Shown here piece by piece: positions 1,121 through 54,210 of a stretch of 64,000 bases of DNA (position 1 is its first letter; each line of letters opens with the position of its first letter). The stretch is taken from the UHGV virus genome UHGV-1374396, one strand, 5' to 3'. Made by a program: the position numbers and the translations under genes. This stretch comes from a virus. The notes below the pieces were generated by a model, which worked only from the letters and a program-made list of their open reading frames with translations, searched no databases and was not told the origin of the DNA.

Positions 1121-2953
1121 CTAGTACTCCTTAACTGTAAGACCTAATTTCTTAGCTTTCAGCATTTTACTTGAGGTAGAGTTTATGTCTCCAGTAAATA
1201 TAATCTTGGCTTCACTAAAAGACGAGGTTTCCTTATATTCGGGATTAGCTTTTAAAAACTCAGCTTTAGTTTTATATTGTTTTGGACTACCAGTAAGTAT
1301 ACATAAAGTTTGATTTGATTCCTCTAGATGAAAATCTTCTATGCCCTTGTGCATTGATTTTAGTAACTTATTTAATTTTCTAAATTCTTTGGAATCCTTT
1401 GATAAAACCCATTCGGTTTTATAATTAGGTAGTTTACCCTCTCCGGTAAGTATTATACGTTCTAATATATTGCATACCTTTGGTCCGTGTGAATCAAGGC
1501 ACATAGTTTGTATTATCTTAGCAAGAGTAATATCCTGGAGTATCTTCTTGAATTCAGTGTATATTTTCTTACCTAATAAAGTAGGTATAGCTCTTTTTAT
1601 AACCTTAGGTTTTACTCTAAGTATATTTGAGACAACTTTGCCATTCTCTTTTAGGTATTCATATAATTGTTCTGATAATGCAGGACCTAACCCTGGTACA
1701 GATAGTATATCACATGAATTTAAGAATTTATTCTTTATACCTTGGTCTTTTGATAGTACAGCATAAGCATGACAATCTTTAACTGTAAATTCTCTTTTTG
1801 GTAGAGGTAGATTCTCTCCAAAGGTTTTTACCTTATAAATAAAAGGTATAATATCTCCAGCTAATGAGATAACTATCTTTGAACCTATTCCAATGACCTT
1901 ATCTACTAAGAAACCATAGTTATGACCTGATACATTGGTTATAGTTTTACCATCAAGTACTACTGGTTTTACCTGCAGTGTTGGGTAGTATTCTCCAGTT
2001 TTACCAAGATTCCAGTTTATATTAACTACCGTAGTCTCGGCTACCATTGGTTCAAACTTGATAGCTATACAATCTGAAGGATATTCTGTTGGTACCTTAT
2101 CTCTATGATTTGAACTTGGTTTTATTACGAACCCATCTAATGGGAATTTATACTCAGACCTGAAGTTTGATAGAGTGTAGTATACTTCCTTGAACGAAGA
2201 TTTTAATAGTCCATCAGAGAAGATAAATGTTGCTGGATAAGGTATACCAGTTTTACCTACCCTAGATACTACATCTTTATCATCTAAGTCAACTAAGGTA
2301 TTATCTTTGATGTATCTGTAATCATAAATAACGTACTCAAGGTCAGAAGCTTTCTTGAATTCTACTTCGTTAGAATCATCATAATCAGAGTTTACCATAC
2401 CCGATACGAAAGACCTTGGGTTCTTAAACTCCTCTGAGTATTTCTTTTCGAAGGTATCTTTACTTATTAATACCTCTCCTCTGAGAATAAAGCATTCATA
2501 GTCTTTAAACGCATTAAAGTCAATTGGTTGTTTGATTAGCATAGTTCTCATCAAACTATAAATATCTTTTCCCCAATTACCATCACCTCGAGTTGATACC
2601 GAGAAGAGTTTTCCGTACTTTACTACCATTTCAAAAGAACACCCATCATACTTGGGTGTAACAATTACTGAGTGTTTCTTAATTACGTCTGGTAATTGTT
2701 TATACAGATCACCCCAATCTGATGTTTTATGTACCTGTATCTTATTTAATGAGCCCATAATAAATGGGTGAGGTACAGTATAATTATTACTGGTAGAAGG
2801 TGCACCAATCAATCTATTTTCCATGCCTAGCTTTTTCTCTAGAGCATCGAATTCAATATCGGGCATTATCTCTTCTCCATTATAGTAAGCTTCTCTGGCC
2901 TTTATATATAATTTAAGGTCTTTCTTTAAGTTTGACTTTGTCATAATATCCAC
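1121..2953 (-). CDS. ligA: NAD-dependent DNA ligase (LigA family)
   Basis: N-terminal Ia-like segment AREAYYNGEEIMPDIEFDALEKKL; HPFIMGSLNK (LigA HPxPMLSL motif); adenylation motif TPKYDGCSF (KxDG); 610 aa. Confidence 0.8.
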   Translation of the reverse strand: MDIMTKSNLKKDLKLYIKAREAYYNGEEIMPDIEFDALEKKLGMENRLIGAPSTSNNYTVPHPFIMGSLNKIQVHKTSDWGDLYKQLPDVIKKHSVIVTPKYDGCSFEMVVKYGKLFSVSTRGDGNWGKDIYSLMRTMLIKQPIDFNAFKDYECFILRGEVLISKDTFEKKYSEEFKNPRSFVSGMVNSDYDDSNEVEFKKASDLEYVIYDYRYIKDNTLVDLDDKDVVSRVGKTGIPYPATFIFSDGLLKSSFKEVYYTLSNFRSEYKFPLDGFVIKPSSNHRDKVPTEYPSDCIAIKFEPMVAETTVVNINWNLGKTGEYYPTLQVKPVVLDGKTITNVSGHNYGFLVDKVIGIGSKIVISLAGDIIPFIYKVKTFGENLPLPKREFTVKDCHAYAVLSKDQGIKNKFLNSCDILSVPGLGPALSEQLYEYLKENGKVVSNILRVKPKVIKRAIPTLLGKKIYTEFKKILQDITLAKIIQTMCLDSHGPKVCNILERIILTGEGKLPNYKTEWVLSKDSKEFRKLNKLLKSMHKGIEDFHLEESNQTLCILTGSPKQYKTKAEFLKANPEYKETSSFSEAKIIFTGDINSTSSKMLKAKKLGLTVKEY

Positions 2954-3443
2954 AGTTTATTAATTCATGACAACCATTACGGTATAAACAATCAGGTACC
3001 ATAACCTTAGCAACATGAGGGTCTACTAATTTTATGGCTTTCTTTAATAGATGAGTGAACTTTCTTGTTTCTGGTGAAGCATGAAAGCAAAGTCTCTTCC
3101 TACCTATAAAGATTAGAGCTTGAGCATTAATTAGGAAGCTCAGATTAACTGGGTCTGTTTGTCTACGTTCTTCTCGTTTAACTCCAGTACGGTCTTCTCT
3201 TGAGGTACCTACAAACCATTCAACCCCTAACTTATGTCTTACTAAGTGATTCTGAACATAATAAGGGATTCCTTCACATTGTACTAGAAAGGTTAATGCT
3301 CTAATAGGAGAATGTTCTGCCTGGAGCATTTTATCTTTCCATACATCTGCAACTGTATTAGTTACTACTTTCTTGTTAACTGTTTGCAATGCAAGCTCTT
3401 TAACTACATCCCAACCAATTAACTGTCTAGCTGTTATTTTCAT
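2913..3443 (-). CDS. compact ThyX-like (flavin-dependent thymidylate synthase family) protein
   Basis: By-eye alignment to the ThyX core: EHSPIRALTF vs FEHIVFTF; VQNHLVRHK vs ARQWFRHR; TSRE vs SGRY; NLSFLINAQALIFIGRKRLCFHASPETRKF vs [31 protein letters not shown]. Only 176 aa (lacks the ThyX N-terminal segment). Confidence 0.5.
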   Translation of the reverse strand: MKITARQLIGWDVVKELALQTVNKKVVTNTVADVWKDKMLQAEHSPIRALTFLVQCEGIPYYVQNHLVRHKLGVEWFVGTSREDRTGVKREERRQTDPVNLSFLINAQALIFIGRKRLCFHASPETRKFTHLLKKAIKLVDPHVAKVMVPDCLYRNGCHELINCGYYDKVKLKERP

Positions 3444-3682
3444 CTCTTCTTGTATATTAAACTTTTTAGATATAGTTCTAATTTATTCTTATCGTTACTG
3501 AGTTGTTGTAACTTATCTAGCATATCATCCTCTAAAACTCTTTTAGTTACTGTATGTAATTTAAGGCTTTGTGATATATTCTGTGTTACAAAAGAGAACC
3601 TCATCTGTGTAACAAATCCTGTATTAGTAACGGTATAGATAATAGGTACTCCATTAATCTCTATTTGAGTTGGTTTAGCCAT
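3440..3682 (-). CDS. hypothetical protein (80 aa)
   Basis: ORF with start/stop overlap to both neighbours (operon-like packing). Confidence 0.4.
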   Translation of the reverse strand: MAKPTQIEINGVPIIYTVTNTGFVTQMRFSFVTQNISQSLKLHTVTKRVLEDDMLDKLQQLSNDKNKLELYLKSLIYKKR

Positions 3683-4305
3683 TATTCGTATGATATAGAT
3701 TTTAGTTGTTGCATAAATATTTTCACAGAAGTCTGTAGGTTGTTTCTCCAGTATTCTGGAATCTCATCTAGTGGACTACCTTCTCCTGGTATATATGCTA
3801 GCATTATAGCTCCGATAGCATCTAACATCTTATGATGAGGTGATACATGTCTTTCCCAATCTGGTAATCGTTGTTGGATTAGAGCATTCATGTCTCTGTT
3901 GTATTGCTTAGCAACTTGTATCATCATTATCGCTGTTAGAGCATTGTTGATTACCTCTAAGTATTCCTGAGATTCATATACCTTGAGTAGAGCATTGTTC
4001 ATTGTGTAGAAGAGTTGAGTAAGGTGTATGTTCATTAGTCCTCTCCACTCTTCTGATTTAACCTTGATGTAATCGATGTTCTTTTGGTCTAGATTTAGAC
4101 GTAGTTCATAGTACCAGTTAGCTTTGATATCGTTAAGCCTACGGCTTAGTTTGATGGTATCTGGTACTCTGTGATCTCTACACCAAGATTGAACCTTGTC
4201 TGAATAATATAGTACTGTATCGATTATCATGTTAGGTGTAAAACATATACGCATGTGTTCATCAAACGTAAATGAATCTAACATACTCTTTAAGTCTTTG
4301 TTCAT
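3682..4305 (-). CDS. hypothetical protein (207 aa)
   Basis: Long ORF in minus-strand train; no motif recognised. Confidence 0.5.
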   Translation of the reverse strand: MNKDLKSMLDSFTFDEHMRICFTPNMIIDTVLYYSDKVQSWCRDHRVPDTIKLSRRLNDIKANWYYELRLNLDQKNIDYIKVKSEEWRGLMNIHLTQLFYTMNNALLKVYESQEYLEVINNALTAIMMIQVAKQYNRDMNALIQQRLPDWERHVSPHHKMLDAIGAIMLAYIPGEGSPLDEIPEYWRNNLQTSVKIFMQQLKSISYE

Positions 4306-4308
4306 AGT

Positions 4309-4380
4309 CTATTTATTTGGGTTATTTAGTAGTGTTATTATACCTAACACTAATGTTATAAATATTAATACGTAGTGCAT
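4309..4380 (-). CDS. tiny hydrophobic peptide (23 aa, MHYVLIFITLVLGIITLLNNPNK)
   Basis: Manual translation; one predicted TM helix; member of a tandem run of four tiny ORFs. Could be AT-richness artefact. Confidence 0.2.
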   Translation of the reverse strand: MHYVLIFITLVLGIITLLNNPNK

Positions 4381-4392
4381 TATACACATAAT

Positions 4393-4527
4393 CTAATCCT
4401 CCTTATCTTTAGAGATACTATCTATGTATCCCTTGAATGCTAAAAATAAAATCAATGTACCCATTAAAGCCATTAACCCTAAGAGTACATATATTAAAGT
4501 TAATTCTAACGAAGTTGGTTGTTCCAT
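4393..4527 (-). CDS. tiny membrane peptide (44 aa, MEQPTSLELTLIYVLLGLMALMGTLILFLAFKGYIDSISKDKED)
   Basis: Manual translation; single TM helix with a charged C-terminus. Confidence 0.3.
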   Translation of the reverse strand: MEQPTSLELTLIYVLLGLMALMGTLILFLAFKGYIDSISKDKED

Positions 4528-4530
4528 ATC

Positions 4531-4614
4531 TTATCTATTAGAGTCGTCAATAATAATGATAAATAGTACAATGAATATAAGTGTTATTAGTAAACATAGT
4601 AATACAGGTCCCAT
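4531..4614 (-). CDS. tiny membrane peptide (27 aa, MGPVLLCLLITLIFIVLFIIIIDDSNR)
   Basis: Manual translation; the ATG lies 2 nt after the stop of the upstream tiny ORF. Confidence 0.25.
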   Translation of the reverse strand: MGPVLLCLLITLIFIVLFIIIIDDSNR

Positions 4615-4616
4615 AG

Positions 4617-4733
4617 TTAATCCTTTCTTTTATAAATATCTCTTAATGTGCAAAATACTAATAAGCTAATCATTAAGCTTATGGTACCCATGAAACCGTA
4701 GACTAGTACGTAATCTAATGTTGTTGCTTTCAT
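4617..4733 (-). CDS. tiny membrane peptide (38 aa, MKATTLDYVLVYGFMGTISLMISLLVFCTLRDIYKRKD)
   Basis: Manual translation; single TM helix plus a basic tail. Confidence 0.3.
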   Translation of the reverse strand: MKATTLDYVLVYGFMGTISLMISLLVFCTLRDIYKRKD

Positions 4734-4932
4734 ATTTATTTAATTTAATGTTTATATATTCCTATAGAAATGAAAAGAACTACTTGAGTAGAGATTGTTA
4801 CTCTATTCTTGTAGTCCTTAATATTTAACGTTATTGCTTAGTGCCTTATGCCTTGGCTTTAGCGATTAGCCCTTAGCCTTACTTATTTATCTCCTACGGA
4901 AATAAATATGTAATCATTTAGTCATCAAGAAT

Positions 4933-6420
4933 CTAGAACGGTAAGTAGAGATCTGAGTATCTTTTATATCTATTCCAGATCTTGCGTAGATTGATGACTT
5001 TTAATTTTTCTCTTCTATAATATCGGGCTCTTCGTTTACTATGCCTTGATAAATAATTATTACCGTTATACTGTATATCATCTAGGTATACTTTATTCTT
5101 ACCTTCGAATAAACGAACCAATCTACCTAATAACTGTATGGTTTTTTCTTCGGATGACATACCTGCAGCATTTACCATATAACGTAGTTTAGGGAAGTTT
5201 TTACCTCTTGATATAAGTGTAGTTGAAACCAATATGTCTATGTCTCCATCCCTAAACCTTTTCATTATTTGGTTTCTCTTTACTTTATTAGTATTTACGT
5301 GTACATATTCTATCTTATATTTGCTTCCTAGTTCTTTATAAATATAATTATATAACTTCTCACAGTGTTTAATATGCTTGCATACTATGAGTGCTGGTAA
5401 ATTGCCATATTTGATAGCTTTCTTTAATCTATCGTATACGCATTTATAACCATATACGTTATTGGTTATGTATTTATCGTATTCCTCCTTATAATCTCTA
5501 ATGTACTCATTTGAAGGTAAGTACCAAGGTTCTGTATCTACTAATTTAACGATTACGTTAGTAGAATAACCTTTCTTTATTGAATCTTTTAATCTGAATT
5601 CCGATATCTTCTGCCCGAAGTAAGCTTCCAGGTTCATATTCTTTAATAAGTCTCTCTTCAAGGCAGATACATAGATTGTACCTGATAAACCTAACCTTAC
5701 TCTAGTGTTATACAAATGAGATAATACTGATTGATAAGATTTACTTCCTGCTAAATCTGCCTCGTCGACTAGTACCATATCTACCTTGGCTAATTCTCTC
5801 TGATAAACCTTTATGTTTCTAGATATGGATTGAACCATACCTATACTGAAGTTAGACCAGTTAGTAACCTTACTACCTTGAACGAAAGTTATATCTTCTC
5901 CAGGTAAGTATTCCTTAAATTCTGATTTAGCTTGTTGTAACCAATCGGAATCGTTAGTTATCAATAAAGTCCTAAGCTTCTTACCAAAACTGTAGTATAG
6001 TGCTGACATTATTAGAGTTTTTCCAAAACCTACGTTCAAATCTAGAACACCAATATAATAAGGTACGTTATCTATTTTATTAGCTAATATTTGTTCCAAT
6101 ACTTTAAACTGTTCGGCTCTTAGTTTAAAGTCTCCTACAGTTTTTACTGCCTTAGCATTTGGGATAGGTAAACGTTTATCTATTACGTTTACTTTTAATT
6201 TTTGCTCTTTACACCATTTATATATTCTTGGTAGTAGACCTATCTTGAACTTACCATATTTATTTAAGAAGTGAACTTTACCGTCCCATTCTTTTATCTT
6301 ACCTCTTAGATAAAAGGCATTAGGGTGTCTTACTGATAGTTCTTGATACAACTTTAGAGCATACTTCTGTGGTATGTCTAAGGTACACTCGTTACAGTTA
6401 TTAATTATTATATTACTCAT
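4933..6420 (-). CDS. superfamily-2 DEAD/DEAH-type helicase
   Basis: Walker A GFGKT; literal DEAD box (VLVDEADLAG); motif III LGLSGT; motif VI QLLGRLVR. Confidence 0.7.
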   Translation of the reverse strand: MSNIIINNCNECTLDIPQKYALKLYQELSVRHPNAFYLRGKIKEWDGKVHFLNKYGKFKIGLLPRIYKWCKEQKLKVNVIDKRLPIPNAKAVKTVGDFKLRAEQFKVLEQILANKIDNVPYYIGVLDLNVGFGKTLIMSALYYSFGKKLRTLLITNDSDWLQQAKSEFKEYLPGEDITFVQGSKVTNWSNFSIGMVQSISRNIKVYQRELAKVDMVLVDEADLAGSKSYQSVLSHLYNTRVRLGLSGTIYVSALKRDLLKNMNLEAYFGQKISEFRLKDSIKKGYSTNVIVKLVDTEPWYLPSNEYIRDYKEEYDKYITNNVYGYKCVYDRLKKAIKYGNLPALIVCKHIKHCEKLYNYIYKELGSKYKIEYVHVNTNKVKRNQIMKRFRDGDIDILVSTTLISRGKNFPKLRYMVNAAGMSSEEKTIQLLGRLVRLFEGKNKVYLDDIQYNGNNYLSRHSKRRARYYRREKLKVINLRKIWNRYKRYSDLYLPF

Positions 6421-7267
6421 CGTCTTTATTTATTAAGTTCCACAAACTGTCTTGGACCTTAGGTCCATCTACTTTCGATTTTTGTTTATATTTGAATATG
6501 TATTTTACATAATACTGTTTCATTTTATCTGTTAAGAATCTTGAAGGTTCAGGTAGACCATTGCACCAAGCCAAACCTTCAAACATTGCATCTATATAAT
6601 CCTTGTAGTCTATGTTGTTAGATAAGCAGTAGTCTTTTAATTGTACAAAGTGGGAGTACTCTGAGGGGTTGTTACGATAGTCTTCTCTTAACCCTGTTCT
6701 TTCTGCTATGACTGATACATAGTAATTATGTATCTTCTCTGTAAGATCTCTGTCTGTATCTGAGTGTAGATTATGTTTAGCTTCCTTGTAGTCTACTATA
6801 TCTTGATACATATTAGGTAATAGGTTTATAGCTCTCTTGGTATTCTTACCTAATAATATGAAACCCGTCTTAATGTAATCTATGAAACCTTCTCTTGGTT
6901 TCATATTGTACTCTTTACTATACTCATTACATATATCGGCTAATTTCTTACATTGAAGCCAAGCTCTTCCACTGTTCTGATTAGGTTTTCTAACACCTCT
7001 ATGATTAAGAGATTTTCTTACAGTGTAATAGATGTCTGCTGCCAAGTAAGCATCTCCTGTAGTAGATTTAGTTAACCGTTCAGCTACCCTTTCAGATACT
7101 TTATTGGTTACTACCATTGCTCTTGAATTGTTGTTATATTTAACGGCTAATTCGAAGAATTTATTAATAGGAAACCTTTTCTTACCCAGTTCCATTAACA
7201 CAGAACGAAAGTCTTCACGGGTAAGATGAAGACTTGGTTCTCTTTCTATTTTCTGTTTCTTTGCCAT
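6413..7267 (-). CDS. hypothetical protein (284 aa), replication-module neighbour
   Basis: Long ORF between the helicase and primase genes; no motif recognised. Confidence 0.5.
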   Translation of the reverse strand: MAKKQKIEREPSLHLTREDFRSVLMELGKKRFPINKFFELAVKYNNNSRAMVVTNKVSERVAERLTKSTTGDAYLAADIYYTVRKSLNHRGVRKPNQNSGRAWLQCKKLADICNEYSKEYNMKPREGFIDYIKTGFILLGKNTKRAINLLPNMYQDIVDYKEAKHNLHSDTDRDLTEKIHNYYVSVIAERTGLREDYRNNPSEYSHFVQLKDYCLSNNIDYKDYIDAMFEGLAWCNGLPEPSRFLTDKMKQYYVKYIFKYKQKSKVDGPKVQDSLWNLINKDDE

Positions 7268-7295
7268 ATTTAGTATATTATATAATTATATAAAA

Positions 7296-8246
7296 TCATA
7301 GTTCATTTTTAAGCTTTTGTAGCTCTCTATATGATTGATACTTAGTATTATATATGTACTTAAGAGTTTTTTTCTTGCCTAAATCATTAACATCTTTACC
7401 TTCTGGTAAGTATACTACCTTTACCGATTTATAATGAACTAATTTCATTGCTAATTCTATGGCATATTTCTTTGCATCGGGGTCTAGTAGTATTATTATT
7501 CTTTCTACGGGAGATTTTATTATCTCATTTATTTGATAAGCCGATACAGCCTTACCCATAGTAGCTATACCTTGTTCTCCCATAGTTAAAGCATTTATAG
7601 CTCCCTCGCATAGAAATACCTTCTTATACATACCAAGTGCATCATGATTAAATATGATAAACTCCTTTCCGAGACCCGTTATATCTTTGTTTGGGTTATT
7701 GTATCTTGGACCATTACTCATTACAGCTCTGGCATTATAGTACCTTAGTTCTCCATTGTAATAAAAAGGTATAACCAAGTAACCATAAAGAGAACCAGTA
7801 GTACAATAACCAATACCAACTCTACTGGCATATTTAATATCAAATCCTCGTTTCTTAACATAACCTCTCATTGATTTAGCTAATTGTGATTTACCTATTG
7901 CTATGTTCTTGAAACCTTCTGGTAGATATACAGGTTTCTTTTCCAATAGTTCAACCTTCTCTTCCTTGAAGGTTAGTTCAGTAAAATCACCGTTATTTAA
8001 AAATGCAGTTAACTCAGCCCAGGTATCAAAACCCTCTATATCCATTACGAGTTGTGCTGGTGATACGTGAGCATTACATCTGAAACAGTTAGTTCTATAC
8101 ATAGTAAGGTTAACACCAAGCTTTTCATCTCTACCACAATAAGGGCAATGGTATAACCTTAACCAACCTTTCCTATATTCATGAGCTAACCCTCTCTTTA
8201 TAAAATATGTATAAAGTTTAGATTTAAACTGATTGGTAATTTTCAT
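7296..8246 (-). CDS. DNA primase (DnaG-type zinc ribbon plus TOPRIM)
   Basis: CPYCGRDEKLG...CFRCNAH zinc-binding cluster; TOPRIM-like FLCEGAINALT and ILLDPDAKK acidic motifs. Confidence 0.65.
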   Translation of the reverse strand: MKITNQFKSKLYTYFIKRGLAHEYRKGWLRLYHCPYCGRDEKLGVNLTMYRTNCFRCNAHVSPAQLVMDIEGFDTWAELTAFLNNGDFTELTFKEEKVELLEKKPVYLPEGFKNIAIGKSQLAKSMRGYVKKRGFDIKYASRVGIGYCTTGSLYGYLVIPFYYNGELRYYNARAVMSNGPRYNNPNKDITGLGKEFIIFNHDALGMYKKVFLCEGAINALTMGEQGIATMGKAVSAYQINEIIKSPVERIIILLDPDAKKYAIELAMKLVHYKSVKVVYLPEGKDVNDLGKKKTLKYIYNTKYQSYRELQKLKNEL

Positions 8247-8249
8247 ATA

Positions 8250-8477
8250 TTATATCCTTTGATGTAATTCTTTTATACGTTTACGTACTACCTTTCTTAA
8301 CTCTTTAAGATCACCTAACGTAAGATTATCTATAACTGAAATCTCTTTGTTATGTGTGAACTTTATATCAACAGATTTAACCTTTGCCTCATGTCTACAC
8401 TCATTGAAAGAGAACTTAATAATTTTACCTTTACCAGAAGAGGTTATCTTGTAATAATTTAGTTTATATGTCGCCAT
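8250..8477 (-). CDS. hypothetical protein (75 aa)
   Basis: Small ORF overlapping the helicase gene start by 14 nt. Confidence 0.4.
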   Translation of the reverse strand: MATYKLNYYKITSSGKGKIIKFSFNECRHEAKVKSVDIKFTHNKEISVIDNLTLGDLKELRKVVRKRIKELHQRI

Positions 8478-9900
8478 GTTTCAATTCATTAGCTTTGTTA
8501 GGGTCAGCATTAGGGTTTTTACCAGATTTATTAAATGATTCATCTAGTTTATTACCATATACTTCATCATATTTCTTACGTTGTTCTATGGTAAACTCTT
8601 TAGCTCTTTGCTTATCGATATCAACATGAAATAAAGCTCTACCCGTAGGTTGGCCATCACGTTGAACTACTAATTCTAGTCTTTGGATATTATCTTGCTC
8701 CTCTTGTTCTGTTGCATTCAAACCATATATTACTTGAGCATGTCTTACGATATCTACACATTTAGCAATATCGTTCTCATCGTATTTAGTAGTACGATGT
8801 TTCTTACCTTCTCGAGTGATATGGTTAGCAGTCCAAATCATGTCTAAATTCTCTGATTCTGCAAGATTCTGTAAATCTATGAACACATTAGAGATTCTTT
8901 CAAAGTCATCTCTATCACCTGCAATAGATGCCAACTTTGCAGCATAGTCCACCATTACAATGTCTATATGAATATTACGTTCTGATAACTTCTTTAAAAG
9001 TCTAGATATGTAATTACAATCTGTTACCATAGCAGGAACTCTTTCAACTACTAGTTCAACACCAAAACGTTGTAGTTTACGTATATGAGATAATTCCTGT
9101 TTATCATATTCTCCAGTGTATAAATCCTTTTTAGATTTATTAATAGAAGACTGTACTATACGGTCCATTATCTGATCTTTACCATTCTCAGTATCTATGT
9201 ATAGTACCGATTTTTTCATTCTTAGATAACCTAATGCCATATTAACTAAGAAGAATGTCTTTCTAGCTTTAGGTTTATCAAGTAACACACCTATTGAATG
9301 TACTGGAAACCCTCCTGCATTGGTTAACTTATTTAATTGTCTATAAGGTGAAGGTACTATAGCAGGGTCTGCCTGTCTCTTAAATTGTCGTTCTACTACA
9401 TCCCTAGTTAAGAATAAAGGCTCATCTTCTGATTTAGGTTTAGCCTGAGATATAATCTTATCCAGTTTCTTTTGGTATTCCTCATACTGATTGAAGTCAT
9501 TTAAATCGAATGATTCATTTAAATTCTTCATCGATACGTATGTAGCAAACTGATATACCTTTTCATTTATATATTCACTATCCCTTAAAGGGTTGCCATA
9601 AATATTATCTATTATATTATATATATTTGGTATATCATCTTTAGTTACCAAATCAACGTAATCCTTGCCTTCTAGTATATCCTTTATTACTTCTTTAAGA
9701 ATATTCTTAGAAGGTACTTTACCGTTTTTCTTGTAATACTTATTTAAACCTTCAACTATTACCGAGTGTTCTATTAGAGTAAAGTAACTTGATTTTACCT
9801 TACCTAAAGCTAAACCTCCTTTATTATCTTGTACGATAAACCGGATTATCTCAAGTTGGAAGTTTGGGTCAAATTCGAATTTGTGTTTATTATTCCTCAT
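8464..9900 (-). CDS. DnaB-family replicative DNA helicase (RecA-fold C-terminal domain)
   Basis: P-loop-like KPKARKTFFLVNMALG; H2-like IVMVDYAAKL; H4-like VVQRDGQPTG (DnaB QRNGPTG). Confidence 0.65.
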   Translation of the reverse strand: MRNNKHKFEFDPNFQLEIIRFIVQDNKGGLALGKVKSSYFTLIEHSVIVEGLNKYYKKNGKVPSKNILKEVIKDILEGKDYVDLVTKDDIPNIYNIIDNIYGNPLRDSEYINEKVYQFATYVSMKNLNESFDLNDFNQYEEYQKKLDKIISQAKPKSEDEPLFLTRDVVERQFKRQADPAIVPSPYRQLNKLTNAGGFPVHSIGVLLDKPKARKTFFLVNMALGYLRMKKSVLYIDTENGKDQIMDRIVQSSINKSKKDLYTGEYDKQELSHIRKLQRFGVELVVERVPAMVTDCNYISRLLKKLSERNIHIDIVMVDYAAKLASIAGDRDDFERISNVFIDLQNLAESENLDMIWTANHITREGKKHRTTKYDENDIAKCVDIVRHAQVIYGLNATEQEEQDNIQRLELVVQRDGQPTGRALFHVDIDKQRAKEFTIEQRKKYDEVYGNKLDESFNKSGKNPNADPNKANELKHGDI

Positions 9901-41587: not shown

Positions 41588-43090
41588 TTATATTGGTGAT
41601 ATGACAGTGTTACTTTTACCTTTACGAATGTGGTTAGTTATAGCTTTACCCATAATATCATCATCAGCAAATACATCTTCTGATAAGGCATCTTCTCCTT
41701 CAGAGTTAGATTTATGTTTACCCATAGCTACCGGTCTATTGAAACTATCATAGATGAAGGTTTTGGATTCGTATATAAAGAAAGGGTCTTTTACGATTAT
41801 GTTATCATTTCTTATATCTTCCTCTAAACCATTTATAATAACAGATCTGTTTTTTGCAGTAGTAAGCCAACCTGGAGCCTTATCAACTTCGGGTCTGGTT
41901 TTACCCTTTTTCTTAATCATTTTCTGATAGTAGTACAACCTTGGGTAACCTTCAGTCTGTAACATTGATGTTACAGCTAAACCTACGTCATTAGATTCTG
42001 GTGCTAGAGTAGCCCAGTTAAATAATTGACCAGTATCACCTAATAGTCTAGCATATTTTTCAATTGGCATTCTACCTTTATATACTGCATTCTCTTCACC
42101 ATCTTTATCCATACAGGTAAATGATGAGTAGTCGGAAGCTCTACCAGTTGCAACGTCTGCTCCTATAAAATAAGATTTAGTTTCGTCTGGTAAATTGAAT
42201 TGTAAATACTGACCGTTATATCTACGTTTTATTACTGGGTATTCTGATAGACAATCTTCGATAGCTTTGATATCCATCAAATCAAATACTGAGTTACCAG
42301 AACTAAGGAAGTCTCCATCAATCTCTTGGGCAGTACGTTTTGGTCCAAGGTTTTTTGACATAACATTATACCATTCCTGGTCACGTTCTGGGTGCATTTC
42401 CCAGAAAAGACGTATAGCATTAAAGTTATTACCTCCAGATATTGCATCTTGCCAAGTCTTATAATAGAAGCCTTGAGAACCGTATGGTGTACTGTTAACA
42501 ATAGCACTACCTCCAGTAGATAGTGTTGGTAGAGCTGCTGCCCAAATTTGACCTGCCCATCTTACAATAGCGGCTTCGTCTATAACCAATAGAGATAGTG
42601 ATTCAGAACGACCTGCTTCAGAAGATGTTGGAATTGATTCTATAAATGAACCATTCGCAAATTCAATCATTGAAGAACTACCATACTCACCTGGACGACC
42701 GTTTGTAATGGGTACCTGCATATACCAAGGTAAGTTCTTGTACATGAACTTGATCTTCTTAAGTACTTTCTTAGCAGTAGTATCTTTAATAGATATAATA
42801 TTTACCTTCTTATTGGGATGGTACATTGTTAACCAAAGACAATATGCCGATATAAGCTCAGTAATACCAGCCTGTCTAAACTTGAGTATGATGTTGAATC
42901 TCTGTAAGACAAACTGGTATAAAACTGATTTTTGATAAGGGTATAGGTCGAATCTAACCTTACCTCTTACCGGGTGTATAAGCCATAAGAATTGTGTAAA
43001 ATAGAATACATCTTTACTAACTTTAGCTAAGTTTGATATCTCATCTTTGGTAAGACCTTGTGTTGAAGTATCAATTTTTATTTTAGCCAT
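41588..43090 (-). CDS. terminase large subunit
   Basis: N-terminal ATPase: P-loop-like LKFRQAGITE; Walker B LSLLVIDEAAIV; 500 aa; followed by the portal-candidate gene. Confidence 0.7.
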   Translation of the reverse strand: MAKIKIDTSTQGLTKDEISNLAKVSKDVFYFTQFLWLIHPVRGKVRFDLYPYQKSVLYQFVLQRFNIILKFRQAGITELISAYCLWLTMYHPNKKVNIISIKDTTAKKVLKKIKFMYKNLPWYMQVPITNGRPGEYGSSSMIEFANGSFIESIPTSSEAGRSESLSLLVIDEAAIVRWAGQIWAAALPTLSTGGSAIVNSTPYGSQGFYYKTWQDAISGGNNFNAIRLFWEMHPERDQEWYNVMSKNLGPKRTAQEIDGDFLSSGNSVFDLMDIKAIEDCLSEYPVIKRRYNGQYLQFNLPDETKSYFIGADVATGRASDYSSFTCMDKDGEENAVYKGRMPIEKYARLLGDTGQLFNWATLAPESNDVGLAVTSMLQTEGYPRLYYYQKMIKKKGKTRPEVDKAPGWLTTAKNRSVIINGLEEDIRNDNIIVKDPFFIYESKTFIYDSFNRPVAMGKHKSNSEGEDALSEDVFADDDIMGKAITNHIRKGKSNTVISPI

Positions 43091-44667: not shown

Positions 44668-45699
44668 CTAACGATTAAGGCAATTGATGAACCATAAACC
44701 CACTTCGTACACAGAGCCCTTTGCTAAGGCATACCTTGCCTTATTGAGGTAGTAATTGTAATTCGATGTATTCATGTAAACCTTAAACTCATTCGGAAAG
44801 CCCATTATGTTTTTGAAGTCCTTAATCCCAATAGGCCAACCATCAGGTCTAAATTGCCTATCTGCAGGTCTTAAGGTTAATGGAGCCTTATCCCATTCCA
44901 ATCTGTAAACTCCAGGTAATGTTGACATCTTAGCTGTTTTGATTGGCCACTTCTTTTCATGTTTGAAATCATTAACCCAAAGGTCATGTATCTGACCTAC
45001 ACTGAGATTAATCTTCTTTGGGAGTTTACGGTAGTCATACATTGCAAGTACTTTATCTGACTTCGGTATCCAGTTACAGGACTCATTGATGTTAGAACAT
45101 AAGTCTAAGTCCATAACTAGAGGTTCTAATACACCTTTGGTATCTTTCAAACTATTAACTTTAAACAACGTATCAAATTTGTTCAACAGCTTTGCTTTCT
45201 TCTTAAGCACTCCAACTATTACTAAACGTTTTCTAGATAGTTGAGAATTACCAAACTCGGATACTGAACAACAATGATAGATTAGTTTATACTCAGGTAA
45301 TGATTCTTCAAAGTAAGTCTTAGGTAGTAGACTTAATAATCTGGGTAGATTCTCTAAAAGAAACATCTTAGGTTTGAAATGATTGATAGCTTCTAATACT
45401 AGATTCAAACTCTTATTCTTCTCGGGTTTACCAAGTTGTTTAACCTTTGAAAGTCTCATAATAGAAGATGCTCCACAGTCTGGAGAACTAACTATTACAT
45501 CAACTTTCTTATCAATCACATCTTCTAAGTTTCTTGTAAACAATGAACTACCAAAGTTACCTTTCCATTGTTCTTCTTTCTTAGTATGAAATACTGCTCT
45601 TGGTTCTACGTTACCAATGATATTATGTTTAGCCAGTTTCCAAGGGAATAATAAAGCTCCCTGACCAGCTGATACACCTAAAACGTTATACTTTCTCAT
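44668..45699 (-). CDS. DNA C5-cytosine methyltransferase-like protein
   Basis: Motif I-like LGVSAGQGA; motif IV-like IVSSPDCGASS (catalytic Cys present, PDC instead of PCQ); motif VI LLENLP (ENV-like); motif VIII QLSRKRLVIVG (Q.R.R...G). Confidence 0.55.
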   Translation of the reverse strand: MRKYNVLGVSAGQGALLFPWKLAKHNIIGNVEPRAVFHTKKEEQWKGNFGSSLFTRNLEDVIDKKVDVIVSSPDCGASSIMRLSKVKQLGKPEKNKSLNLVLEAINHFKPKMFLLENLPRLLSLLPKTYFEESLPEYKLIYHCCSVSEFGNSQLSRKRLVIVGVLKKKAKLLNKFDTLFKVNSLKDTKGVLEPLVMDLDLCSNINESCNWIPKSDKVLAMYDYRKLPKKINLSVGQIHDLWVNDFKHEKKWPIKTAKMSTLPGVYRLEWDKAPLTLRPADRQFRPDGWPIGIKDFKNIMGFPNEFKVYMNTSNYNYYLNKARYALAKGSVYEVGLWFINCLNR

Positions 45700-49597: not shown

Positions 49598-49628
49598 CAA
49601 AGTTATGAATAATTTTTTAATCTACAAA
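49598..49628 (-). promoter_or_regulatory. second tandem Bacteroidota-type promoter (TAACTTTG at 49598-49605; TTTG at 49625-49628)
   Basis: Same motif, 19-bp spacer; the flanking ~40 bp nearly duplicate the first copy. Confidence 0.45.
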
Positions 49629-49984
49629 GAAAAATCTAATTTTTTTTTGAGATTAATTTTTATAAACATAAATAATAAAAATTCTAAAAAGAATTATTTT
49701 TTAATACAAAAAATTTGGTTATATAAAATATTTGTATTATTTGCGTGCGTACATATATAATATATAAGAGTTCAAAAATTTGTATATTTGCATTATTAAA
49801 TTTTAATAATGCAAAATTTTGGGGCCTATAAGTTGTGTAGGCGGCCGCGTTGTTGTGTAGCCCCTATACTACTTTTCTAAAGGTACTCCAGGGGCCATAG
49901 ACAGTATATTGATATACATTAGGAATAGGCCAATAAGGCCCAGCCAACATTTTTGTTCTCCAGTAAACCGTGAATGGCCGGGAA

Positions 49985-50310
49985 CTATAATAGGGCCTTG
50001 AAAAGAACTTGGTAAGCCCAGAGGGCCCTGGATGGTTGCCTATTCGCTTCATTGTTGTGAAATTGGTAAGCGAAATTCGTTAGGCCTAGTGGATATGAAA
50101 TCGGAAACGCCTATTGCATATTGTAGCGTTACACGGAAAGGCCCGGATGGTTAGTTAAGCTTATTCAAAATCAGTAGGGCCTTGAAGACATAAGGCAAGT
50201 CACGGAAGAGATCAAATACATTAGTGGCCATTCAGGGTTATCTAAAAGGACCTCGAGGTAGAGAAATCGGAAATGTGTAAGTGATTTTGTAGCGTATATA
50301 CACAGAGAAA
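49985..50310. repeat. imperfect tandem duplication of a ~165-bp unit (each begins TAGGGCCTTGAA and contains GAAATCGGAAA...TTGTAGCGT...ACAC.GA.AAAGCC.GG)
   Basis: Aligned by eye; GC content far above the genome background. Confidence 0.55.
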
Positions 50311-50312
50311 AA

Positions 50313-50333
50313 GCCTGGGTTGTGAGCCCAGGC
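50313..50333 (-). terminator. intrinsic terminator of the acidic-protein gene (GCCTGGG-TTGTGA-CCCAGGC; on the minus strand followed by TTTTTC)
   Basis: 7-bp GC stem 26 nt downstream of the stop at 50359, A-run on the plus strand equals T-run on the coding strand. Confidence 0.6.
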
Positions 50334-50358
50334 CTAAGACCTATGATTTGAATAAGGA

Positions 50359-50874
50359 TTATTGTTGATCCTGAGGGAATTTAGAAAGGATTTCCTGGAT
50401 AGTGTTTTGTTCAGAGATTATTTGAGTAAAGTCTGGGTCGCAGAATTCGCATTGATCCTGGAGTAGTTCGTCCTGATCCTCTTTTTGTTTATCGTAGTTG
50501 ATAATGTATTGTTTTACTGGATTGATATCGATTGGGTCTTTGCCTTCGCAGTTATAGTTGTAGCAGAAGGCAATATGTTGCATTTGGTTAAATAGGTCTG
50601 GAATGTAATCGTAGAAATCGTCGTCTCCGATGAAACCGCTTTGTAGAATTTCGGTTAATTGTTTTAGGAGTTCATCGAAGGCAATTCGAGCTTCTTTGAT
50701 ATTAACCGAGTAGATGATTTGGATTCCGTTATCCATGAGTTCATCGAATAGTTCTGGGTTGGAATCTTCCAGTTCGAAGGCTTCGTAAATCCTTGTGATG
50801 TTAGTTGGGAGGTATTCTCCTGTTGTACTTGGGATAAGGAATTCGTTGGTGTTTAAGAAATTTAATTTGTTCAT
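50359..50874 (-). CDS. highly acidic hypothetical protein (171 aa), isolated between two long noncoding regions
   Basis: Roughly a quarter of residues are D/E; own promoter (50921-50952) and own terminator. Confidence 0.55.
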   Translation of the reverse strand: MNKLNFLNTNEFLIPSTTGEYLPTNITRIYEAFELEDSNPELFDELMDNGIQIIYSVNIKEARIAFDELLKQLTEILQSGFIGDDDFYDYIPDLFNQMQHIAFCYNYNCEGKDPIDINPVKQYIINYDKQKEDQDELLQDQCEFCDPDFTQIISEQNTIQEILSKFPQDQQ

Positions 50875-50920
50875 AATGACTATAAAATTTAATTATTAAT
50901 ATTGATTTATTATTACAATG

Positions 50921-50952
50921 CAAAGATACGAATAATATTTTTATTCTACAAA
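50921..50952 (-). promoter_or_regulatory. Bacteroidota-type promoter (TATCTTTG at 50921-50928; TTTG at 50949-50952)
   Basis: 20-bp spacer; about 47 nt upstream of the ATG at 50874. Confidence 0.5.
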
Positions 50953-51410
50953 TATTTTTCTAATAAAATTATTAGTGGCTGGAGATCTTAGATATAGTCA
51001 AACTGATAAGTATGAACATAAGTATCAAATTATAGGTAGTTTTCGATTAATTCTAGAGCTCTAGTATAAGTTAAGTAATATATTTATATGTTTGATTATA
51101 GGAATAATTCTTGATATAGGTAAAACTTGGGGCCATGAACGGTATCCTTGAAATCGAAAATGTGATTAAATTTACACGTACACATACGCCTTGTTGTGTA
51201 AACCTTAAAGCCCAAAGGCAAGGCCCAAATCGTAATCCTTAATCCTAAAAGGCCTAACCCCAAACACAAATAATACATAATATAAACATATCGAATAGTG
51301 TAACCTATATACATATCTAGTAATATATAATACATATACGAATATTCTTATCAATACTGAAACAACTATATTCTAGTTGTGGCCATGTACTGTAACGCAG
51401 TTAGCGAATT

Positions 51411-51421
51411 GAAATCGGAAA
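51411..51421. repeat. GAAATCGGAAA 11-mer (other copies at 50097-50107, 50263-50273 and variant 51150-51160)
   Basis: Exact and near-exact copies, each preceded by a GGCCAT-containing segment. Confidence 0.5.
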
Positions 51422-51463
51422 GCGAATCTCAAATCACCTAATCTCCTTGCCCCAAACAAACCA

Positions 51464-51655
51464 ATATATATATATATATATAATATAAACTAATACGATT
51501 AGGCTCTAGGCAATACGATTAGAGATTACGATTTAAAGTTCTACTCTACTAGCTTAGCTACTACTAGCTACTCTACACACAACGAATAATATATTCAAAT
51601 CGAATCACCTAAATCGAAAGCCTAGACCATTCTATTATATATATATATATTATAA
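51464..51655. repeat. two (TA)8-10 microsatellite tracts (about 51464-51484 and 51636-51654), each preceded by an AATCACCTAA element
   Basis: Seen directly. Confidence 0.6.
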
Positions 51656-51659
51656 AAGG

Positions 51660-51970
51660 GGCCGTTTTAGGACTACGTGTTCATTTTAGGCTTTTCGTAG
51701 CTTCCTAACGTCTGCCTTTTAGCTCTTTTTCGATTTCAAGGATTTGACGATTTCGATGACGATTAGGCTCTGGGATTTGACGATTTTATCGAAAATCTCC
51801 TCGAAAAAGTGAACGATTTGAGGCCATTTTAGGTACATTTTTATCGAAAAATAGAGCGAATTTCGTTCGAAAAAAGGCCTAAAAATGAGCGAAAAATGTA
51901 CCTTTTTAGGCTCCAAAAAGGCTCCAAAAATTGCCTAAAATAGGCAAAAAAACGGCCTTTTTAGGGCATA
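51660..51970. repeat. cluster of short direct repeats: TTTTAGG(C) about 8 times, ACGATT/GACGATTAGGCTCT, ATCGAAAA
   Basis: Seen directly; no credible ORF. Confidence 0.55.
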
Positions 51971-52376
51971 GCGGAAGGGGCTCGAAATTAGGGCCCCAAG
52001 GATTGAGAGTCGAGCTGGAAGTATAGTGTGTGTATAGTGACGTTAGGCAAACCCAAAATTTCGAAGAGCCCAGGGCCCCGGCACCGCCACCCCCGATCTG
52101 ACAAGTAGCTGTTTTTGAACTAGCTGAAGTATGTTGATAAGATACGTGTCGAGTTTTTAGTTCGAATTTTGGGGCTTATTTTCAAAGGGCAACGTTTACG
52201 ATTAAAAGGTAACGTTATCGAATACGTTTAAAGTATATATTTGGATTGGTTATATTAGGTTAGGTTTATTATGTATTCGTATATGTATAATGTGTATTGA
52301 TATTATTTAGGGATTTTCTTTGTTGGGAGTGGGGTTTGGTTGTGTATTAGGTTTAGTGTATATGTATTTACACATT

Positions 52377-52411
52377 AATAGGATCTCTATTGGTGATGTA
52401 GAGATCCTATT
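52377..52411 (-). terminator. 13-bp perfect-stem hairpin AATAGGATCTCTA-N9-TAGAGATCCTATT immediately downstream of the last gene of the right-hand gene block
   Basis: Ends 9 nt after the stop at 52420; no U-run. Confidence 0.45.
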
Positions 52412-52419
52412 CGATTGAA

Positions 52420-52731
52420 TTATTTCTGTGTTTCGTGTAGCATGTGTTTGTATACCTTTTGTAGTATTTCTGTAGAAATCGTATTGAAAGGAATACCTTG
52501 TACTAGTTCCGAGTTTCTAGATGAGCATATATATTCTAGGTTGTTGGTGACTTTGTTGATTCCGATTTCATCTATCCAGTGATAATGATTACCTTCGAAG
52601 ACTATATCGGTTGGTAGTTCGATACTCTTTTCGAATCTGTATATCCAGGTGCCACTGTATTCTTGATACTTTAGGTGGGTTATTATGTAATCTAGTATCT
52701 CTAGTGTTACTATCATATCTGTTTGTGTCAT
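52420..52731 (-). CDS. hypothetical protein (103 aa); paralogue of the C-terminal domain of the adjacent 262-aa protein
   Basis: ILDYIITHLKYQEYSGTWIYRFEKSIELPTDIVFEGNHY parallels VVNEIISHLKYKEPEEVLFYRFEQPIKLETQITHEGKHY. Confidence 0.45.
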   Translation of the reverse strand: MTQTDMIVTLEILDYIITHLKYQEYSGTWIYRFEKSIELPTDIVFEGNHYHWIDEIGINKVTNNLEYICSSRNSELVQGIPFNTISTEILQKVYKHMLHETQK

Positions 52732-52737
52732 AGTGAT

Positions 52738-53526
52738 TTATGGGTTTTCTTTTGTTATTTGTTCGTGTACCTTTTGAAGAAGCATTGGGCTTTGGGTGTT
52801 AACTGGGACGTATGATAGGTATTTAGGACTTGTAGGGTCGTGGCATACGTAGCTTAGTTTTCTCCAATATGGGAAGTATACTATTGCATTGATTTGGTCA
52901 TAGTGTTTGCCTTCGTGGGTTATTTGGGTTTCTAGTTTGATTGGTTGTTCAAATCTGTAGAATAGTACCTCTTCCGGTTCTTTGTATTTTAGGTGAGATA
53001 TTATTTCGTTTACTACCTGTATGAATGATAATTTTGATGAATCTGTCATATTCTTTTGTTTGTTGAGACTGTACCAGTAATGAAAGTAAGTATGTGAGTA
53101 ATTAAGCACTTTATCGAGGAATGGGTGATCTTCCGGGTTATCCTCGAATTGTTGTTCGTAGAGACTAATCTTATCGTATAGCCTTGGAATGTATTTGTCT
53201 ACTAGAGTTGCCCATTCCTCTTTATTGTTATCTAATTGGAACCTTATTAGCATAGTAGTCATGTATAAGGCCTGGAAGAATTCTGCTTTGTCTTTTCCTT
53301 GCAGTTTGATTTTCCGATTTAGTTGTTGGGCAAGGTAGTCGTAGTAGAATTGAACGTATTCTTTTATTGATTCTGAAGCTAGTTCGATTATCCAGGTATC
53401 ATCTCCCATGTATTCTTTTAGTACATTGAATTCGAATACCTCTTTGCCTTTGTATACCTTGCAGTATAGGTTGTTATTAGGCAGAACCTCTGTCTCTATT
53501 GAGGGTAGTATTATTGTTTCTTTCAT
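52738..53526 (-). CDS. hypothetical protein (262 aa)
   Basis: ORF; shares its C-terminal domain with the downstream gene. Confidence 0.5.
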   Translation of the reverse strand: MKETIILPSIETEVLPNNNLYCKVYKGKEVFEFNVLKEYMGDDTWIIELASESIKEYVQFYYDYLAQQLNRKIKLQGKDKAEFFQALYMTTMLIRFQLDNNKEEWATLVDKYIPRLYDKISLYEQQFEDNPEDHPFLDKVLNYSHTYFHYWYSLNKQKNMTDSSKLSFIQVVNEIISHLKYKEPEEVLFYRFEQPIKLETQITHEGKHYDQINAIVYFPYWRKLSYVCHDPTSPKYLSYVPVNTQSPMLLQKVHEQITKENP

Positions 53527-53882
53527 TGTAGTATCCTTTTAATTTCTTGTTGGAGTACTTCTAGTTGTTGGAGTACCTCGTCTTGCTTTTCATAAGATAC
53601 CCTTGATAATTTAGTTTCGATGTCAGAAGAAAGATCTGATATAATTTGTTGAGCCTCCTGAGTATAATCTACGTTTGTTATGTAAGTTAGCAAGGGTATG
53701 TTGACTTGTTGTTTAACCTCTAATGGTAAATCATCTAATGTAGGTTTATCATCCTGGGTTTTTAGGGTAGATATGTACCTATCCGCTAATACTAGTAAGT
53801 TGAGTACTAATTCCGATTGGATTGTTCGGTTGTTGAATGTTAATTCTTTAAGCCTATCTAAGTTGAATGTTTCTAGTTTCAT
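53523..53882 (-). CDS. hypothetical protein (119 aa)
   Basis: ORF overlapping neighbour by 4 nt. Confidence 0.45.
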   Translation of the reverse strand: MKLETFNLDRLKELTFNNRTIQSELVLNLLVLADRYISTLKTQDDKPTLDDLPLEVKQQVNIPLLTYITNVDYTQEAQQIISDLSSDIETKLSRVSYEKQDEVLQQLEVLQQEIKRILQ

Positions 53883-53883
53883 A

Positions 53884-54210
53884 TTATTTTACGTTAAAGT
53901 AGTTAGGGTCTTGGACTAATTTTACCTCTCTTGCAGTTGATAAATATTCGGAACCGGCATCAGTTTCTAATATTGGAGCATCTTCTCCTACTCCTAAGGA
54001 ATCTAGTAGAGTTTCTGTAGCCTTCATGTAAGCTTCGTATTTATGAAGGTTTTCTTGAGCCTTGTTGTAATACTTTTTGTAACAGTAGAGAGAATCTCTT
54101 GATGATTTTAGCATCTGATATAATTCGGATTCTGTTGTTTTACTGTTTGAGCATCCTGTTGTTAGTGTTCCTAAGAGGATGGCCGATAAGATAAATTTTA
54201 ATTTTTTCAT
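53884..54210 (-). CDS. putative lipoprotein (108 aa)
   Basis: Signal peptide MKKLKFILSAILLGTLTTGC with lipobox-like Cys; own promoter. Confidence 0.5.
   Translation of the reverse strand: MKKLKFILSAILLGTLTTGCSNSKTTESELYQMLKSSRDSLYCYKKYYNKAQENLHKYEAYMKATETLLDSLGVGEDAPILETDAGSEYLSTAREVKLVQDPNYFNVK

Follow-up and report, generated by a model that had tools for sequence, protein, structure and literature searches.

What does a phage keep in some 1.5 kb of DNA that holds no gene? We addressed this question for positions 50875-52419 of a 64,000-nt stretch of the virus genome UHGV-1374396 (hereafter the window), which is part of a myophage genome of about 81 kb in full, with nearly all genes on the - strand. 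The original prediction, made from the letters of the window, had taken this region for a replication origin or a packaging cis-region. Our sequence comparisons give good support to one part of that claim, namely that the region is a functional cis-acting DNA element, neither junk nor a missed gene. As to its function, the lytic replication origin of the phage is the favoured reading, with a probability of roughly 40%; it is unproven, and the classical iterons that had been expected are absent.

The region holds no gene

In a greedy map of open reading frames (ORFs), 50875-52419 is the largest ORF-free gap of the window, lying between two - strand genes. It had been described as having no credible ORF for ~1.5 kb, and this was borne out: the gap stayed closed when TAG, TGA or TAA was read through. 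The longest frames obtained by reading through one stop codon were 116 codons (TAG, + strand), 89 codons (TGA) and about 160 codons (TAA), and a 187-codon frame under TAA read-through (52498-51938) starts within the gene at 52420-52731. These frames overlap repeats and are not conserved. Pattern and protein searches yielded six window-type relatives for comparison, of which L149 and L146 share about 90% identity with the region, and contig 156713, L145, L147 and L148 about 70%. The two ORFs that a mechanical search places here, 51096-51335 and 51719-51916 (- strand), had been judged not credible, and they carry stops or frameshifts in 4/6 and 4/6 aligned relatives, respectively. We therefore rejected a hidden gene or stop-codon recoding, as no long frame appeared under read-through and the ORFs are broken in relatives.

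Oriented words and phased tracts around two dyad centres

Two regularities lie behind the repeats of the region: A/T tracts phased at 11.0 bp, and AATC[GC] words that switch strand at each (TA)n tract. The parts concerned are as follows.

51464-51487: (TA)n tract 2, found with TRF, centre of dyad 2
51488-51635: inter-tract segment, an imperfect 56-nt inverted repeat (51468-51523 versus 51595-51650) around a CTAC/TAGC stretch, moderately conserved
51492 and 51512: two copies of AATACGATTAG in the inter-tract segment
51636-51654: (TA)n tract 1, found with TRF, centre of dyad 1, variable in length and found in every relative; a candidate site for DNA unwinding or cruciform formation
51655-51789, - strand: most conserved block, abutting (TA)n tract 1 and holding further ATCGT words
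51682-51673, - strand: GAACACGTAG, in the same block
51786-51773 and 51753-51740, - strand: the 14-mer AAATCGTCAAATCC in two identical copies, 33 bp apart, found exactly only here in the window
51790-51975, both strands: indel-rich array of A/T tracts with GGCC/GCC words (TTTTAGG, CCTAAAA and CGAAAA repeats)

Read on the + strand, the AATC[GC] words run > > > > > (TA)9 < < < > > (TA)7 < < < < < < <, and they point toward each tract from either side. Since the words switch strand at each (TA)n tract, each tract is the centre of a dyad. The tracts also stand out in duplex stability. Among all 20-bp duplexes in the 64 kb, tract 2 is the least stable (-14.7 kcal/mol) and tract 1 the second-least stable (-15.1 kcal/mol), compared with a window mean of -24.2 kcal/mol (standard deviation 2.2). 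The AT-rich tracts of the original prediction thus hold up as candidates for unwinding, with the weakest duplexes of the window at both tracts and tract 1 abutting the block that carries the 14-mers.

The 11-bp phased zone as a whole extends over about 51655-52100. Its A/T-tract period of 11.0 bp has a Fourier power of 10.7-13.6, versus 5.4 for the 99th percentile taken over every window of the 64 kb; no stronger signal of this kind occurs in that stretch, and 0 of 500 shuffles reached it. Repeats in the array are spaced by 11, 33 and 55 bp, and the two AAATCGTCAAATCC copies lie 33 bp apart, i.e., 3 x 11. Intrinsic curvature is predicted for the phased A/T-tract block.

Type II centromeres are characterised by repeat arrays phased at 11 bp. 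The region might accordingly be a partition (centromere-like) site of a plasmid-like phage, its phased repeats binding a ParR-type adaptor as at parC of R1, and whole-community metagenomes often yield relatives of the phage as closed circles. We regard this as very improbable: the units are degenerate A/T tracts with no defined iteron, and no ParA, ParM, ParB, ParR, integrase or repressor was detected with Pfam and PHROGs among the ~60 proteins scanned, a set that took in part of the small ORFs.

Enrichment of repeated words

We then assessed the individual repeats that had been listed from the letters. TTTTAGG had been counted about eight times, and five TTTTAGG plus three CCTAAAA do make eight copies, versus 12 in the other 62.5 kb (expected 0.31). 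ATCGAAAA is present five times in the region versus twice elsewhere in the window, and the ACGATTAGGCTCT[AG]GG repeats were found at 51495 and 51759. AATCACCTAA, reported to precede (TA)n twice, occurs in the window only at 51432 and 51603, each copy about 21 nt ahead of a tract; the low-complexity CTAC/TAGC stretch was confirmed at 51541-51576. Taken over the list, the repeats are enriched 10-25-fold relative to the rest of the window (Poisson P of 1e-7 to 1e-19 against the window background). The iteron-like 11-mers survived only in part: GAAATCG is present at 51150 and 51411, with inverted CGATTTC at 51731 and 51748, and these are two-copy words, not iterons.

Conservation of place and architecture in a large phage family

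Comparison with related genomes, which the original prediction had called for, showed that the place and the architecture of the region are conserved across a large phage family. IMG/VR holds 484 related terminase loci, 80 of which were fetched for comparison of the gap. An ORF-free gap of 0.7-1.4 kb lies 6-9 kb upstream of the terminase gene in 41/41 fetched relatives with enough upstream flank. The gap sequences fall into seven clusters that cannot be aligned with each other. Nevertheless, the gaps of the first type have features in common. A switch from C-rich to G-rich sequence is seen in about 40 relatives and in most of the 41 just named, and the '>' to '<' switch of words around a centre also recurs in relatives, including clusters without alignable sequence. 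A module consisting of GGGGGT, about 45 nt (56 nt in the window type) and then (C)TACTATAC is shared by four otherwise unalignable clusters, and the cluster of L019 and L066 likewise has CACGTAG ahead of (TA)n. These comparisons indicate that the architecture is under selection even where the sequence is not.

Within the window type, the region is 64% identical overall to the four distant relatives, and near-invariant blocks stand out. The block at 51655-51789 averages 79% identity to the distant relatives and contains runs of 88-92%. Relatives differ in the A/T-tract array by the gain or loss of entire units, yet the 11.0-bp phase is kept and is the top periodic signal in 6/6 window-type loci. 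L148 lacks the equivalent of window positions 51254-51611, that is, the second dyad, and other clusters likewise have one; one dyad is therefore enough and tract 2 is dispensable.

In several distant relatives (L066, L019, L048, L078 and L036), the top signal at about 6750-7400 (~3 kb upstream of the terminase gene) is a 10.5-bp A/T-tract periodicity, which has no counterpart in the window.

The upstream half of the region, read on the - strand from the gene at 52420-52731, contains the other well-conserved parts:

52378-52412, - strand: hairpin with a 13-bp stem (AATAGGATCTCTA / TAGAGATCCTATT) and a 9-nt loop, directly after the stop codon of gene 52420-52731
~52230-52375, - strand: C/A-rich left arm
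52311-52340, - strand: conserved C/A-rich word CCCCACTCCCAACAAAGAAA within the left arm, from the alignment
52010-52188, - strand: single-copy conserved core, from the alignment
52147-52130, - strand: ACGTATCTTATCAACATA, a core 18-mer unique in the window
52132-52140, - strand: TTATCAACA, a DnaA-box-like 9-mer inside the invariant ACGTATCTTATCAACATA, with one mismatch to TTATCCACA
52119-52103, - strand: TTCAAAAACAGCTACTT, a core 17-mer whose next-closest match in the window has 3 mismatches
52094-52073, - strand: G-run GGGGGTGGCGGTGCCGGGGCCC (also read as GGGGGTGGCGGTGCCGGGG), the first part of a G-rich block at 52094-52066
52039-52021, - strand: CACTATACACACACTATAC in the core, holding CACTATAC twice (ACTATAC twice)

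The core has a mean identity of 74% to the four ~70%-identical relatives, with invariant runs of 17-20 nt. A 19-mer of the CCCCACTCCCAACAAAGAAA word was found in 27 viral contigs of the family, and it has matches in relatives with a terminase that is only 77% identical. We found no DNA-level match to the region among GenBank phages, and nothing in the literature on the phage group or on CCTAAAG arrays. The G-rich block was also considered as a widespread mobile or functional motif and rejected, as its two other database matches are unrelated high-GC contigs and were attributed to chance.

The element works as DNA rather than RNA

The stem of the hairpin at 52378-52412 is kept in 7/7 aligned relatives, with changes on both sides of the stem and a single G-U wobble whose pairing is possible only in RNA of the - strand, which argues that it acts as the terminator or 3' hairpin of the upstream early operon, a probable assignment. 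This hairpin is the only place where structural compensation was observed among relatives.

We next considered whether the region itself encodes one or more noncoding RNAs, such as a long C/A-rich RNA or a small RNA starting at the G-run. The whole region folds about 6 standard deviations better than mononucleotide shuffles, a GC-rich island lies within an AT-rich genome, and the constant spacing from the G-run to ACTATAC could reflect an RNA domain. However, the two strands show the same excess, which is what dyad symmetry of the DNA would give. Rfam 15 gave 0 matches at the gathering score in the window and, searched to E 10, only chance-level matches in the region (E 3.7 to 9); ARAGORN detected 0 tRNA or tmRNA genes. 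Consensus folding of the core and of the conserved ~200-nt block at 50990-51200 with RNAalifold was weak (-11 and -8.5 kcal/mol over 170-200 nt), each block showed a single compensatory pair, and eight variants of the G-run/ACTATAC module folded no better than shuffles (z -1.8 to +1.3). A strict scan found no internal consensus promoter on either strand; a relaxed scan returned two + strand TAnnTTTG sites in the region, which are not conserved, and a sigma-70 scan was at chance level. A noncoding RNA is thus a very unlikely explanation, and the lack of Rfam and tRNA matches, covariation and internal promoters argues that the element works as DNA. A single giant hairpin between the C/A-rich and G/T-rich arms was likewise rejected, with only a 40-nt imperfect match between them and a fold excess equal on both strands.

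Early promoter and its upstream block

The downstream end of the region leads into a promoter of the Bacteroidota type. The features on this side are:

51201-51463, - strand: G/T-rich right arm, with CGATT/GGATT words oriented opposite to the left arm
50990-51200, - strand: conserved ~200-nt block, 40-250 bp upstream of the promoter at 50952
51198-51177, - strand: TACACA-N10-TGTGTA, in the ~200-nt block
51146-51131, - strand: invariant GATACCGTTCATGGCC, in the ~200-nt block
51053-51064: perfect palindrome CTAGAGCTCTAG, in the ~200-nt block
50915-50952, - strand: promoter TTTG-N20-TATCTTTGCA, of Bacteroidota-type consensus, driving the 171-aa gene at 50874-50359

The right arm is poorly conserved in sequence (44% identity to distant relatives), yet every cluster retains the word orientation. 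The ~200-nt block is 75% identical with invariant runs, nhmmer matched it only in window-type relatives, and its words are candidate operators or protein-binding sites. The promoter at 50952 is one of 5 such sites on the - strand, none of which lies within 50975-52419, and its cassette recurs in relatives.

These features raise the possibility that the region serves early-transcription control, with operators and curved DNA binding a phage or host nucleoid-type protein, setting the activity of promoter 50952 and insulating it from the upstream operon. Upstream curved A-tract DNA activates bacterial promoters. The ~200-nt block, with TACACA-N10-TGTGTA and CTAGAGCTCTAG, lies at a suitable 40-250 bp from the promoter, and the terminator-like hairpin at the far end suits an insulator role. 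On the other hand, at 1.5 kb the region is very long for promoter control, and the best-conserved parts (52010-52188 and 51655-51789) are 0.7-1.2 kb away from the promoter. The (TA)n dyad organisation has no obvious role in transcription, and the other five to six promoter cassettes of the window have no such upstream region. We consider control of early transcription a minor possibility as an account of the whole region, with a slightly lower chance than the packaging reading discussed below.

A possible genome end or packaging site

A genome end or packaging site, i.e., a pac site or terminal-repeat boundary that is the first DNA into the cell, would explain several aspects of the layout. 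On the - strand, the order is the terminator of the last operon, a unique core with the G-rich block, CCTAAA-type arrays, a strong promoter and a 171-aa acidic protein, which resembles the left end of T7, where 11 CCTAAAG lie within 340 bp together with the same 10-mer AATCACCTAA. Some pac sites, such as pacL of SPP1, are likewise known to have curved DNA and phased sites, and the contigs of several relatives break inside the region. However, the large terminase (TerL) is T4 gp17-like, with 28-35% identity over ~90% of its length to T4-type phages, and known phages with a terminase of this type package by the headful mechanism and lack fixed ends. The assemblies of two relatives close into circles that run through the region, one with abutting ends and the other with a 55-nt k-mer shared by its ends. 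The region lies at a distance of 7-9 kb from the terminase genes, whereas pac sites are usually in or next to terS, and its words stand on both strands with 11-bp phasing, unlike the one strand and 13-bp spacing of T7. Furthermore, the contig breaks are scattered, non-homologous and beside (TA)n, as assembly trouble would give. The two indirect hints, the T7-like word array and the T4-type TerL, point opposite ways. We consider a genome end or packaging site unlikely, though the likeliest of the alternatives to an origin.

Two narrower versions were rejected. A cos site at the G-rich block was discarded, as TerL is T4 gp17-like, not lambda- or HK97-type, and circular assemblies pass through the block; a fixed terminus deduced from contig ends was discarded, as the ends are scattered. 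The contigs of L003, L004, L106, L024, L029, L052 and L063 start inside the noncoding region at different positions, often beside (TA)n, probably because assembly fails at low-complexity or variable DNA. One near-identical relative forms a circular contig of 81 kb. Some IMG/VR relatives with a 77% identical terminase (e.g., 3300029181_000001; L019, L121) measure about 153-173 kb, versus the usual 80-87 kb; the ~170-kb relatives may not be simple dimers, as each has only one copy of CCCACTCCCAACAAAGAAA.

A candidate lytic replication origin

The phage has its own helicase, primase and ligase and therefore needs an origin somewhere. Its replication genes are:

1121-9900: replication genes, comprising DnaB-like helicase, primase, helicase and NAD-ligase
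8464-9900: DnaB-like helicase
7296-8246: primase

Oriented words around the weakest duplex, a curved segment, conserved blocks, a fixed place and the phage's own helicase and primase together make a lytic origin the best explanation of the region, on which account protein binding, curvature, melting and replication are all inferred from the letters. The original prediction had placed the region between an early gene block and an accessory/lysis region, and this placement was right.

Several observations weigh against an origin. The classical iterons did not materialise: no unit of 17-22 bp stands in 3 or more direct copies, the longest sequence repeated exactly is the 14-mer, with two copies, and apart from it the repeat families are two-copy or 5-7-nt words. 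Cumulative GC skew, suggested at the outset as a check, has its window minimum at about 46-48 kb, not at the region. The skew follows the transcription strand and is reversed on both sides of the region without a step change; there is a local switch of sign inside the region at ~51.65 kb, and word orientation and the local C-rich-to-G-rich switch count as one observation, not as two independent ones. No initiator gene (Rep- or O-type) or gene for a DNA-binding protein adjoining the region was recognisable among the flanking genes with Pfam or PHROG, and a flanking gene could possibly be a novel initiator. As for DnaA boxes, there is no cluster but a single box with 1 mismatch, conserved and not enriched. 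The replication module is 41 kb away, and with a bidirectional origin one fork would run head-on into the - strand genes to the right. Finally, the region lies directly upstream of a strong early promoter, so that it is perhaps partly regulatory.

If the region is an origin, it may work as follows. An initiator, either phage-encoded or host DnaA at the conserved TTATCAACA, would bind the short AATCG/AATCC-type words. These words, including the two AAATCGTCAAATCC 14-mers three helical turns apart, are oppositely oriented on either side of the (TA)n tract. The neighbouring ~300-bp block of 11-bp-phased A/T tracts would be curved and help to wrap the DNA round the bound proteins, and the strain from wrapping would melt the weakest duplex, which is the (TA)n tract. 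Once open, the tract would admit the DnaB-like helicase (8464-9900) and the primase (7296-8246) of the phage. Window-type phages would carry two such dyads, of which one would suffice.

A further, speculative and very improbable idea is that GGCC methylation gates the origin or packaging site. GATC, Dam and SeqA time events at E. coli oriC and P1 pac. By analogy, hemi- or unmethylated GGCC between the phased A-tracts might time initiation here, GGCC possibly being the target of the phage's C5-cytosine methyltransferase; a PDB search for the specificity of this enzyme gave no match. If true, such gating would be a cytosine version of GATC/Dam/SeqA control, in a dyad-symmetric origin unlike the lambda or plasmid types.

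Genes and sequence features around the region

The gene context in the window is as follows.

41588-43090: large terminase (TerL), from a protein search
44668-45699: C5-cytosine methyltransferase
50359-50874, - strand: 171-aa small acidic protein, downstream of the region
52420-52731, - strand: 103-aa protein, upstream of the region
59434, 56446, 50952, 49628 and 49534 (- strand), 10023 and 46456 (+ strand): promoter cassettes, from a pattern scan

Other myophage genes in the window encode a head maturation protease, tail sheath, tape measure protein, baseplate and tail fibre. Flandersviridae was rejected as the phage's group; it is a different one, whose terminase joins Ackermannviridae. The promoter cassette conforms to the Bacteroidota type (TTTG-N19-21-TAnnTTTGCA), and similarity extends over ~60-90 nt of its flanks; it recurs in the window and has several copies in relatives. 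The tandem cassettes at 49628 and 49534 sit in a very AT-rich stretch (GC 25%). The promoter type points to Bacteroidota as hosts. A search of bacterial genomes for the host returned five phage contigs in metagenome-assembled genomes labelled Bacillota or Clostridia, too few for naming a host.

The flanking genes 50359-50874, 52420-52731 and 52738-53526 had no Pfam or PHROG match. Owing to the high variability of the early genes, searches with the flanking genes recovered one near-identical contig only. Early genes near the region are fluid: L149 is without the 103-aa gene (52420-52731), and in the close relative L146/L002 (contig 3300045988_079865), at about L002:8486-9276, the 171-aa gene has a paralogue in tandem that carries a promoter cassette of its own. 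The - strand genes flanking the region (50359-50874 and 52420-54210; windows 50001-51000 and 52001-54000) have C>G on the coding strand, opposite to the structural and replication genes, and the early genes of relatives show the same reversed skew.

A second ORF-free block, at 49810-50358 after the terminator (50335-50311) of the 171-aa gene, is packed with NGGCCN words. GGCC has 23 of its 77 window sites in 49823-52074, the two noncoding blocks making up 3.5% of the window. GATC is strongly avoided in the whole window (51 observed versus 196 expected from trinucleotides, ratio 0.26) and CATG mildly (ratio 0.64), which suggests pressure from host restriction systems.

Significance and comparison with known systems

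The family of uncultured gut phages to which the window belongs is large and very common, and for the phage itself neither an origin nor a pac site nor a regulatory circuit is known. A conserved fragment that bears such landmarks could be used for replication or packaging assays, shuttle vectors and engineered phages for Bacteroidota, and the element is a marker for orienting genomes of the family. It also illustrates that a cis-element may be conserved as architecture (orientation, phasing and meltability) after its sequence has drifted beyond alignment. If it is simply an origin, it would be expected in any phage and be only moderately surprising.

The left end of T7 (terminal repeat with SRL array, promoters A1-A3 and gene 0.3) shares with the region a CCTAAA-type array (8 here versus 11 in T7) and strong host-type early promoter(s) followed by a small acidic first gene. 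The exact 10-mer AATCACCTAA is also present in the T7 terminal repeat (NC_001604 1-340, L156) among the 11 CCTAAAG. However, the T7 words lie on one strand at multiples of 13 bp, whereas the region has them on both strands with 11-bp spacing; the phage has a terminase of the T4 rather than the T7 type, no terminal repeat is demonstrable, and T7 has no (TA)n dyad. The type II centromere parC (R1, pSK41) resembles the region in having 10-11-bp phased repeats over more than 100 bp and in a predicted superhelical wrap of the protein-DNA filament. It differs in that no ParM/ParR genes were found here in the scanned proteins, the units form no defined iteron, and conserved unique blocks and (TA)n dyads come in addition.

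Iteron theta origins (lambda ori; P1, F, pSC101 and R6K) are likewise noncoding cis-elements with short repeated words, helical phasing, curvature and an adjacent AT-rich tract, and the region has a DnaA-box-like 9-mer in a conserved block. Unlike them, it lacks at least 3 direct 17-22-bp iterons and an overlapping or adjoining recognisable initiator gene, its words form inverted arrays around the AT tract, and it is 5-10 times longer than lambda ori.

In the SV40/polyomavirus core origin and the archaeal ORB elements, inverted initiator sites flank an AT-rich centre. Their initiators belong to unrelated families (we saw neither an SF3 helicase nor Orc1/Cdc6 here), and the arms of the region are degenerate and hundreds of bp long. 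What the region has in common with them is an AT centre that melts readily, flanked by short words of opposite orientation on its two sides, and by analogy this dyad geometry suits head-to-head loading of two helicases.

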